Below, piece by piece: positions 1 through 805 of a DNA stretch of 805 nucleotides. Position 1 is the first letter of the stretch, and each line of letters begins with the position of its first letter. The position numbers and the translations under genes were made by a program. Source of the DNA: Escherichia coli (GTDB lineage Bacteria; Pseudomonadota; Gammaproteobacteria; Enterobacterales; Enterobacteriaceae); assembly GCF_003334765.1 (NCBI RefSeq), contig NZ_QOWT01000096.1, one strand, 5' to 3'. The notes under the pieces are model-generated. The model was given only the letters and a program-made list of their open reading frames with translations. It made no database searches and was not told the DNA's origin.

Positions 1-805
1 CTGAAACGTATTTTGCCTGGTAACGGGCGTCATCAAGTGCATTATGGCGCTCACCTTCGAATGGAATAGCCGTTCTGGCATCGAAGTCTATGGCTTTCCC
101 CAGCTCAACGATTGTGCGTACATCGCGATCGTTGTAGTAACGCCACGGGCAGGGGATCCCCTGCCGTTCGTATGAACGGCGCAAAATCGTGTTGTCGAAG
201 TTGGCTCCATTTCCCCAAACCTGAACAAAAAATTCACCGGAGTTTTCGTCGATAAATTCCCGCAATTGTAACAGTGCATCATCTAACGGGATTTCATCGG
301 TCATAATGGCAGATTGCGCTTCGCGTGATTGCTTAAGCCACCATTTAATGGTGTCCCGATCAATGACTCCGCCAGCAGTTTCCAGATCGATAGTCTTACT
401 AAATTCCGGTCCCATATCTCCGGTTTGCGGATCGAAAAATATTGCACCTATTGAGATGATCGGGGCATCAGGATTTTTTCCCATGGTTTCAAGGTCGATC
501 ATTAGATGGTCACACGTCCTGCTGGTGGATGTGATTTCTTGATGACCGTTCACCTTAATTGAGTGATCTGCCGTCTCGCCAGTTTCATTATCGCTATCGT
601 GATGCTGATTGCCGCCAGTGTTCTCCTTGTGTGGATGTTCAGCGCCTTCCATTTCCTCCGGATCATCTTCCTGAACTTCAACCTGATACTCTTCATCGAA
701 TGTTTCTTGGTATGTTGCGTCGCCCATCACCGCGCCACAATCAGGGCAGTTGCCGCCGCCGGTCTGACCGCAGGCGGTGCAGACTTTTTCCACTTCCTGT
801 TGCGC
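1..805 (-). CDS. Internal fragment (5' and 3' ends outside window) of a large prophage-type nuclease: RecE-like Cys4 zinc ribbon and acidic linker followed by a DEDDh (DnaQ-like) 3'-5' exonuclease domain
   Basis: Reverse-complement translation in the frame where + 803..805 is codon 1 gives 268 consecutive sense codons with no stop: [268 protein letters not shown]. It contains recognisable exonuclease motifs and an enterobacterial-looking codon pattern. The other five frames are broken by stops or give only the short ORFs in the track. Confidence 0.88.
148..165. repeat. Perfect 18-bp palindrome GGCAGGGGATCCCCTGCC (9-bp arms, no spacer, GATC at the centre)
   Basis: Read directly: + 148..165 equals its own reverse complement; position 147/166 breaks the symmetry. 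Lies inside the CDS (codons for R-Q-G-I-P-C-P). Confidence 0.95.
163..180. repeat. Inverted repeat / hairpin: 7-bp stem GCCGTTC (163..169) and GAACGGC (174..180) with a 4-nt loop GTAT
   Basis: Read directly; overlaps the 3 terminal bases of the 18-bp palindrome, giving a 33-bp block (148..180) of dense dyad symmetry. Confidence 0.85.
566..721 (-). other. Acidic, His-containing low-complexity linker between the zinc ribbon and the exonuclease domain
   Basis: Translation [53 protein letters not shown] is dominated by D/E with several H, G and N and has no hydrophobic core pattern, consistent with a flexible interdomain linker. Confidence 0.6.
737..781 (-). other. Cys4 zinc-ribbon-like motif (CxxC-x7-CxxC)
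   Basis: Translation [19 protein letters not shown]: Cys codons at + 779..781, 770..772, 746..748 and 737..739. Glycine-rich spacer typical of small zinc ribbons. Confidence 0.6.

Follow-up and report, generated by a model that had tools for sequence, protein, structure and literature searches.

The gene in the window

The window (the whole stretch of 805 nucleotides analysed here) is open from end to end in only one of its six frames, the minus-strand frame that starts at base 805 and runs for 268 codons. The plus-strand frames and the other minus-strand frames hold just ORFs of 21-78 aa, which are without support, and no RNA family was found when the window was scanned with Rfam (E<=1). The open frame is an internal fragment of a prophage gene of 824 codons in locus L001 and 813 codons in locus L002 (Table 1). 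In L001 the window corresponds to residues 544-811 of the 824-aa protein, that is, to its C-terminal third. The window lacks the start codon of the gene as well as its last 13 codons and stop, and contains all five catalytic residues described below.

At 99.8% identity, the DNA of the window matches annotated genes of E. coli chromosomes and of sequenced temperate phages. The matching coding sequences are variously named 'exonuclease', '3'-5' exonuclease', '3'-5' exoribonuclease domain-containing protein' and 'exodeoxyribonuclease VIII', the label '3'-5' exoribonuclease' being given by PGAP to some copies and 'exodeoxyribonuclease VIII' by the phage records, and the PHROGs family phrog_2082 covers an entire protein of 823 aa. 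A separate standalone gene beginning at the ATG of the sequence MIDLETMG was considered and rejected, as the frame is open upstream of it and the sole AGGA lies ~14 nt from that ATG.

Table 1. Features located in the window, with the evidence on which each was placed
Feature	Position	Strand	Evidence and remarks
Internal gene fragment	2..805	-	Open frame and offset mapping; 268 codons of a prophage early-left-operon gene of ~813-824 aa
DEDDh (DnaQ-fold) 3'-5' exonuclease domain	2..508	-	Pfam PF16473, DexA / Rv2179c-like family
Exo III motif H-x4-D (HNALDD)	29..46	-	H254 at 44-46, D259 at 29-31; start of the last long helix
Exo II motif WGNGANFDN	191..217	-	Catalytic D204 at 194-196
Exo I motif D-x-E	488..496	-	D104 (494-496) and E106 (488-490), in MIDLETMG, on strand beta-1
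Acidic, His-rich low-complexity linker, predicted to be disordered	509..736	-	Composition and full-length AlphaFold2 (AF2) model
recE-homologous stretch	565..803	-	blastn/megablast; 85% DNA identity to K-12 recE, RecE aa ~509-588
Zinc-ribbon-like CxxC-x7-CxxC motif	737..781	-	Read from the translation; common to RecE, conserved in K-12 RecE

The exonuclease domain

The C-terminal domain is a DnaQ-fold exonuclease of the DEDDh type with a complete catalytic set, a conclusion on which the HMM match, the conservation of the residues and a confident structural model agree. The Pfam family PF16473 ('3'-5' exoribonuclease Rv2179c-like domain') matches aa 100-268 of the fragment, window positions 508-2 on the minus strand, with an E-value of 2.3e-66. 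The match takes in model positions 2-174 of 177, the end of the window being the sole cause of the cut, and in the full protein positions 2-177 are matched. The general RNase_T/DEDD family (RNase_T, PF00929) gives a weak match (E=1.3e-4). The domain call itself had already been made by RefSeq, PHROGs and Pfam and is thus already known.

Residues D104, E106, D204, H254 and D259 align column for column with D7, E9, D119, H186 and D191 of T4 DexA, both in a MAFFT alignment and in an HMMER profile alignment. The active-site residues of DexA are common to the epsilon subunit of Pol III (PMC12153337); that paper prints E12 where the DexA sequence has E9. The five residues are invariant in an alignment of 12 sequences and at least 90% conserved in one of 76 sequences. 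Of the clusters that cover all five positions, 90 of the 94 close ones and 124 of the 129 representative ones have the full DEDHD pattern, a retention of ~96% among full-coverage homologues. This conservation is far above chance, and a chance match to the motif was therefore rejected. A sequence-only reading of this DNA had placed an intact set of five DEDDh residues at 2-514, and it is confirmed by the Pfam match, whose limits fit these coordinates, by the alignment with DexA and by the conservation of the residues.

A profile search of the PDB matched T4 DexA (8kel, E=6.9e-35) with the catalytic columns aligned, and oligoribonuclease (Orn) weakly (E~5e-4). The AF2 model of the domain has a pLDDT of 94.4 and a pTM of 0.90 and fits an RNase H-like alpha/beta fold in which Exo I is carried by beta-1 and Exo III by the last helix; in the numbering of the domain, D8 and E10 are in strand 4-11, D108 starts helix 108-118, and H158 and D163 are at helix 160-178. 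In a Foldseek search with this model DexA was the best match (E=7e-12, TM 0.78) and RNase T, Orn and REXO2 came next, with a probability of 1.0 for DexA, RNase T and Orn. The modelled structure thus points to the same DnaQ fold as the HMM. The sequence-only reading had also taken the domain to be likely catalytically competent; by homology, with T4 DexA as its best match, it is probably active. Across the domain dN/dS is 0.21 in comparison with a 90%-identical allele, and the domain is under purifying selection.

Homologues are numerous, as a search of a library of representatives at 50% identity (E<=1e-3) returned 12,127 representative clusters, the majority of which are standalone proteins of ~180-190 aa.

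The RecE-derived body and the chimeric architecture

The gene is a chimera in which a variable head is followed by a body homologous to RecE as far as residue ~591, a CxxC motif, an acidic linker and the DEDDh domain, the latter sitting where RecE has its PD-(D/E)XK 5'-3' nuclease. Similarity to recE DNA ends at about window position 565 and there is none below this point, which places the swap junction inside the window. The recE-like stretch of the window corresponds to positions 521-602 of the NCBIfam profile for exonuclease VIII (NF007259), and in the full-length gene product this profile is matched from position 1 to position 602 of 877 and no further. The BLASTP alignment with K-12 RecE extends to RecE aa 591, a point just short of the PD-(D/E)XK nuclease domain.

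The heads vary between loci. The L002 form carries a RecE-like head (PF06630, E=5e-35) and is 59% identical to K-12 RecE over 565 aa; the L001 form carries a YdfE-like head and has only the body from about aa 262 in common with K-12 RecE. Their NF007259 scores, 944 bits for the L002 form and 277 bits for the L001 form, are both below the curated cut-off of 1269 bits. A Pfam search of both full-length forms found no PD-(D/E)XK domain, and the C-terminus gave PF16473 only. The identification of the gene as RecE proper was rejected. In cluster P0122 the exact N-terminus of K-12 RecE is joined to the DEDDh C-terminus, and long forms of 450-900 aa with a C-terminal DEDDh domain are enterobacterial and extend down to ~55% domain identity.

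Natural chimeras in which the exact RecE head is joined to a nuclease whose polarity is opposite show that the head is an autonomous module, and they offer a handle for its study. To our knowledge the sole known effect of the RecE head is an improvement of linear-linear recombineering. For the cysteine motif the Pfam zinc-ribbon matches are weak (E 0.2-0.7), and the motif is missing from the more distant long forms. The acidic linker, of ~75 residues, lies between the RecE-like body and the exonuclease domain, and its dS in comparison with the L010 allele is 0.71 vs 0.085 in the domain. The AF2 model of the full-length protein, built from an alignment of 15 sequences, has a mean pLDDT of 54.5, with values below 50 over L001 residues 501-638, and is confident only at a helical region (~245-343), a small segment (~385-435) and the DEDDh domain; owing to this low confidence it was left out of the fold search. 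According to a recent review, the function of the N-terminal domain of RecE is not known (PMC11611040).

Genomic context

The order int - xis - gene - ydfD - dicB - ... - repressor was found in five loci, inducible phages included, and DicF is annotated in one of them. The annotation of the flanks shown for these five loci includes neither recT nor any other gene for an annealing protein. In prophage Rac, recE followed by recT occupies the same slot next to xis and int. The standalone homologues are found beside genes of DNA metabolism: within an erf - ssb - exo - abc2 module in phage mEp235, in the series exonuclease - SSB - 3'-5' exonuclease - DNA polymerase in Klebsiella phage SBP, and in the series Cas4 exonuclease - hypothetical - exonuclease - DNA polymerase in RcPescado.

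That lambdoid early-left operons contain DnaQ-like nucleases was already published in 2025, in a survey that reports 3'-5' nucleases of this kind in lambdoid Rec modules and, in addition, sporadic DnaQ-type genes 'very near int' (PMC12315714). The main text of that survey does not describe a fusion to a RecE head, and in the literature on ydfE, on PF16473 and on RecE combined with DEDDh no study of the fusion itself was found.

The name 'exodeoxyribonuclease VIII' implies that the protein is equivalent to RecE, the exonuclease half of a recombinase composed of an exonuclease and an annealing protein. Such an equivalence would agree with the phage records, with the homology of the RecE head over ~590 aa, with the slot that the gene shares with Rac recE-recT and with the one standalone homologue that is inside an erf-ssb-exo-abc2 module. 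It is nevertheless highly improbable, since the protein scores below the NCBIfam equivalog cut-off and is devoid of the PD-(D/E)XK domain, none of the five loci has an annealing-protein gene annotated in its flanks, and a 3'-5' polarity would remove the 3' tail that annealing proteins require. Moreover, according to the 2025 survey, the usual effect of DnaQ-type exonucleases on homologous recombination is inhibitory (PMC12315714). The description of the locus as a prophage recombination-type gene in the sequence-only reading can consequently be kept in part: the homology to RecE 1-591 upstream of the domain and the early-left slot beside xis and int are in its favour, but the lack of an annotated annealing-protein gene in the flanks of the five loci and the score below the exonuclease VIII cut-off are not.

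Comparison with known nucleases

T4 DexA (exonuclease A; PDB 8KEL/8KEN), a phage-encoded 3'-5' DNA exonuclease, belongs to the same Pfam family as the domain, has the same DnaQ fold and the five aligned DEDDh residues, and is the best PDB match in both sequence and structure, with ~26% identity. However, DexA is a standalone protein of 227 aa from a virulent phage and carries extra loops and helices, whereas the domain of the window is the C-terminus of a temperate-phage protein of ~820 aa. The residues of DexA that have been implicated in 5hmC recognition and tetramerisation are only partly kept. W152, which stacks on 5hmC (PMC12153337), aligns with Tyr (RYYNDRD vs KFWNQRD) and S87 with Pro, whereas the tetramer-forming D90, which is Ala78 in EcD, is still Asp (LDDALL) in both alignments. 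The position of D169, in a loop region, is Ala in the MAFFT alignment and Asp in the HMMER profile alignment.

A family named after Rv2179c of M. tuberculosis raises the question of RNA as the substrate. Rv2179c, RNase T and oligoribonuclease/REXO2 are cellular RNA-processing enzymes that have the DEDDh fold and chemistry in common with the domain, and RNase T and Orn are its next-best structural matches after DexA, but the sequence similarity is weak (RNase_T E~1e-4, Orn E~5e-4). A 3'-5' exoribonuclease similar to Rv2179c (RNase T-like), trimming or degrading the 3' ends of RNA in phage development, would be in line with the Pfam name, which PGAP repeats on some copies, with the action of RNase T, Orn and REXO2 on RNA, and with the description of Rv2179c as a divergent RNase T orthologue (PMC8628891). 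We regard it as improbable, because DexA, the closest characterised relative by sequence and fold, is a DNA exonuclease, and a search of the PDB with the family profile did not bring up the structure of Rv2179c, even at E<=10. In addition, the standalone homologues have SSB, DNA polymerase, Erf and other DNA nucleases as neighbours, and the fusion partner comes from a DNA exonuclease. As many DEDDh enzymes do not discriminate between sugars, DNase and RNase activities may coexist.

Another relative of interest is EcD, a DexA homologue of E. coli described in the 'HREX' report (accession HAK9828821.1; PMC12153337). The sequence used here for comparison is an inferred one, obtained by scanning viral contigs with the published forward primer, which led to proteins of 189 aa; their 3' end fits the reverse primer except for one extra A, and their residue 78 is Ala, as stated in PMC12153337. 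EcD is of the same family, is encoded by E. coli and has a complete catalytic set, as does the domain of the window. The inferred EcD-like protein of 189 aa is, however, only ~39% identical to the domain; it stands alone, retains the Trp and carries Ala where DexA has D90, and its motif WCKGASFDF in place of WGNGANFDN indicates another subfamily.

By extension from EcD, the gene could encode an anti-phage or superinfection-exclusion nuclease that protects the lysogen through the selective degradation of incoming modified (5hmC) phage DNA. Plasmid-borne EcD gave E. coli protection against T4 and cleaved DNA containing 5hmC, leaving unmodified DNA uncut (PMC12153337). The gene of the window is of the same PF16473 family, is prophage-borne and occurs in about 75% of E. 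coli genomes, and no annealing-protein partner was seen in the flanks of the five loci. Against this, the identity to the EcD-like protein is low, the Trp that stacks on 5hmC is replaced by Tyr, and Asp is present where EcD has Ala. Furthermore the protein is a fusion of ~820 aa and not a standalone enzyme, and the PADLOC defence models gave no match for either of the two full-length forms. A defence function of this kind is therefore unlikely.

Two further comparisons concern the context of the domain. RecE of prophage Rac (NF007259, PF06630) has a body homologous to that of the present protein as far as RecE aa 591, including the CxxC motif and acidic linker found at window positions 565-803, and occupies the same position beside xis and int; it differs in having a PD-(D/E)XK catalytic domain where a DEDDh domain is found here, with the opposite polarity to be expected, and in that no recT was seen in the flanks inspected here. 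The standalone DnaQ-like nucleases of lambdoid Rec modules (for example in mEp235 and epsilon34; PMC12315714) have a 58% identical domain and are likewise encoded in the early-left operon. These proteins are of ~180-190 aa and are flanked by erf, ssb and abc2, whereas the domain of the window forms an in-frame fusion with a RecE-like body, next to which there is no gene for an annealing protein, SSB or an anti-RecBCD protein.

Proposed activity and role

Window positions 2-508 (minus strand) encode the catalytic C-terminal domain of a chimeric early protein of lambdoid prophages, and this protein is likely to be a 3'-5' DNA exonuclease that may be concerned with the processing of DNA ends. By analogy with the family, the most likely activity is that of a two-metal-ion 3'-5' DNA exonuclease, in which D104, E106, D204 and D259 would hold two divalent metal ions and H254 would be the general base that activates a water molecule, so that nucleotides would be removed singly from a free 3'-OH end. 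DNA would be the most likely substrate because the closest characterised relative, T4 DexA, is a DNA exonuclease, because the neighbours of the standalone homologues are DNA enzymes and because the fusion partner derives from a DNA exonuclease. DexA, RNase T and Orn act as dimers, and the enzyme probably does so too. The weakest step of this proposal is the biological role: expressed upon induction, the protein may contribute to the processing of DNA ends by the early-left operon in lytic development, and its RecE-like body would be a module for targeting or a scaffold. A two-component recombinase of the RecE/RecT type is unlikely, as the polarity is wrong for making 3' tails and no partner gene was seen.

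A broader and rather doubtful extension is that the RecE-like body may be a general delivery module on which nucleases of opposite polarity are interchangeable, either PD-(D/E)XK together with RecT or DEDDh alone, the DEDDh version eroding 3' tails and not promoting recombination. If this were true, the DEDDh version might antagonise the recombination and replication of the host or of rival phages, or exclude superinfecting phages, and would be a distinct function of the lambdoid early-left operon.

For annotation, the label 'exodeoxyribonuclease VIII', which is used in many phage records, transfers a 5'-3' recombination activity to a protein that has neither the RecE nuclease domain nor RecT nearby. 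The correct description would be '3'-5' exonuclease with a RecE-like N-terminal region'. The candidate roles (recombination accessory, exclusion factor, relic) concern a gene which about three quarters of the complete E. coli genomes carry and to which a standalone enzyme reported to defend against T4 is related; the overall importance of the finding is modest.

Occurrence, alleles and decay

DNA of the DEDDh domain was found in 4063 of 5426 complete E. coli genomes, at 8086 places (~75% of the genomes), and that of the PD-(D/E)XK domain of Rac recE in 1736 genomes, at 1827 places. The sequence-only reading had held the 3'-5' type of exonuclease to be the less common one, and in E. coli these counts contradict it: the commoner version is the 3'-5' nuclease on a RecE-like body with no annealing protein nearby.

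In some alleles, catalytic or conserved positions are substituted. The L010 allele has D replaced by E in Exo II, P0007 has E replaced by K, and P0127 and P0132 show multiple changes. The existence of these substituted alleles indicates that the activity is dispensable in at least some lineages. Together with the frequent disruption of the gene, they could suggest a decaying relic, in which, as in cryptic prophages, the motif is intact by descent although expression and use of the protein have ceased. This is very unlikely, given the dN/dS of 0.21 in the domain, the intact ORFs of ~820 aa in the inducible phages Tritos, HannyBb and vB_EcoS-640R1, and the maintenance of the fusion architecture down to ~55% domain identity across the enterobacterial long forms.

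Disrupted copies include ydfE of K-12, which is interrupted by IS2, L011, which is interrupted by IS1, and the copies of Stx2a phages, which are frameshifted. Many copies of the gene are located in cryptic prophages or are disrupted.

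Mosaic structure of the gene

The DNA similarity to K-12 recE (85% identity) is confined to positions 565-803 of the window and the sequence below that stretch is unrelated, which places a recE/DEDDh domain-swap junction inside the window. When compared with the L010 allele, the part encoding the linker and the zinc-ribbon (509-805) presented a dS of 0.71 and the part encoding the DEDDh domain (2-508) a dS of 0.085. This approximately 8-fold gap indicates that the two halves have different histories, and points to mosaic recombination inside the gene, as judged from sequence divergence. 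Moreover, the same body and DEDDh tail were found with three or more different heads, which comprise the N-terminal ~250-440 residues and are divergent from or unrelated to one another. An extra small segment (~385-435), confidently modelled, is present in the L001 form and in the homologue cluster P0125 and is missing from RecE.

The zinc-ribbon-like motif is common to the window protein and RecE, and is missing in the more distant long forms. No significant Pfam family covers this stretch, and no function for the motif was found in the literature consulted.

Features and loci of the fusion gene and its relatives
Feature	Location	Strand	Remarks
recE/DEDDh domain-swap junction	window ~560-565		inside acidic linker; end of recE DNA similarity
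Zinc-ribbon-like CxxC-x7-CxxC motif	window 737-781	minus	also in RecE aa ~517-532
YdfE-like head	L001
RecE-like variant head	L002
Exact K-12 RecE head	P0122
ydfE pseudogene, K-12 Qin prophage	L007 4079-4843		interrupted by IS2E
Stx2a-converting/PPompW phage copies	L006 1688-4155
Strain JCC-EE 7 copy	L011 3960-4508
Allele L010	3960-6431	minus
Genes carrying the RecE-type labels	L002 7960-10401; L005 5960-8431
mEp235 region with standalone homologue	L008 4775-6859

Annotation and disrupted copies

In phage records, L002 and L005 among them, the gene is labelled 'exodeoxyribonuclease VIII' or 'ds DNA exonuclease'. Such naming was inherited from its RecE-like head, and the gene lacks the nuclease domain of RecE. 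The K-12 ydfE corresponds to the first 255 residues of the L001-type protein (87% identity) followed by IS2E, and through this truncation the DEDDh domain of that gene has been lost in K-12. The Stx2a-converting/PPompW phage copies carry an annotated frameshift resulting from a 4-bp deletion, and in strain JCC-EE 7 an IS1 insertion has left the DEDDh domain alone, as a pseudogene.

Alleles altered at catalytic or conserved positions include L010 (D to E in Exo II, KWWLK to KRWLK and G to D) and those of clusters P0007 (649 members; E to K in Exo I), P0021, and P0127 and P0132 (two or three catalytic changes). Such changes indicate that versions of the fusion predicted to be inactive are in circulation.

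Standalone homologue and published sequences

Phage mEp235 encodes a standalone homologue (58% identity) located downstream of erf, between ssb and the anti-RecBCD gene abc2. This locus is a complete P22-type recombination module to which a 3'-5' nuclease has been added.

The catalytic Glu of the T4 exonuclease DexA is named E12 in the text of PMC12153337 but is E9 in the sequence (D-x-E motif). The reverse primer for EcD, the E. coli DexA homologue, has one A more in the supplementary table of that paper than the matching genomic sequences.
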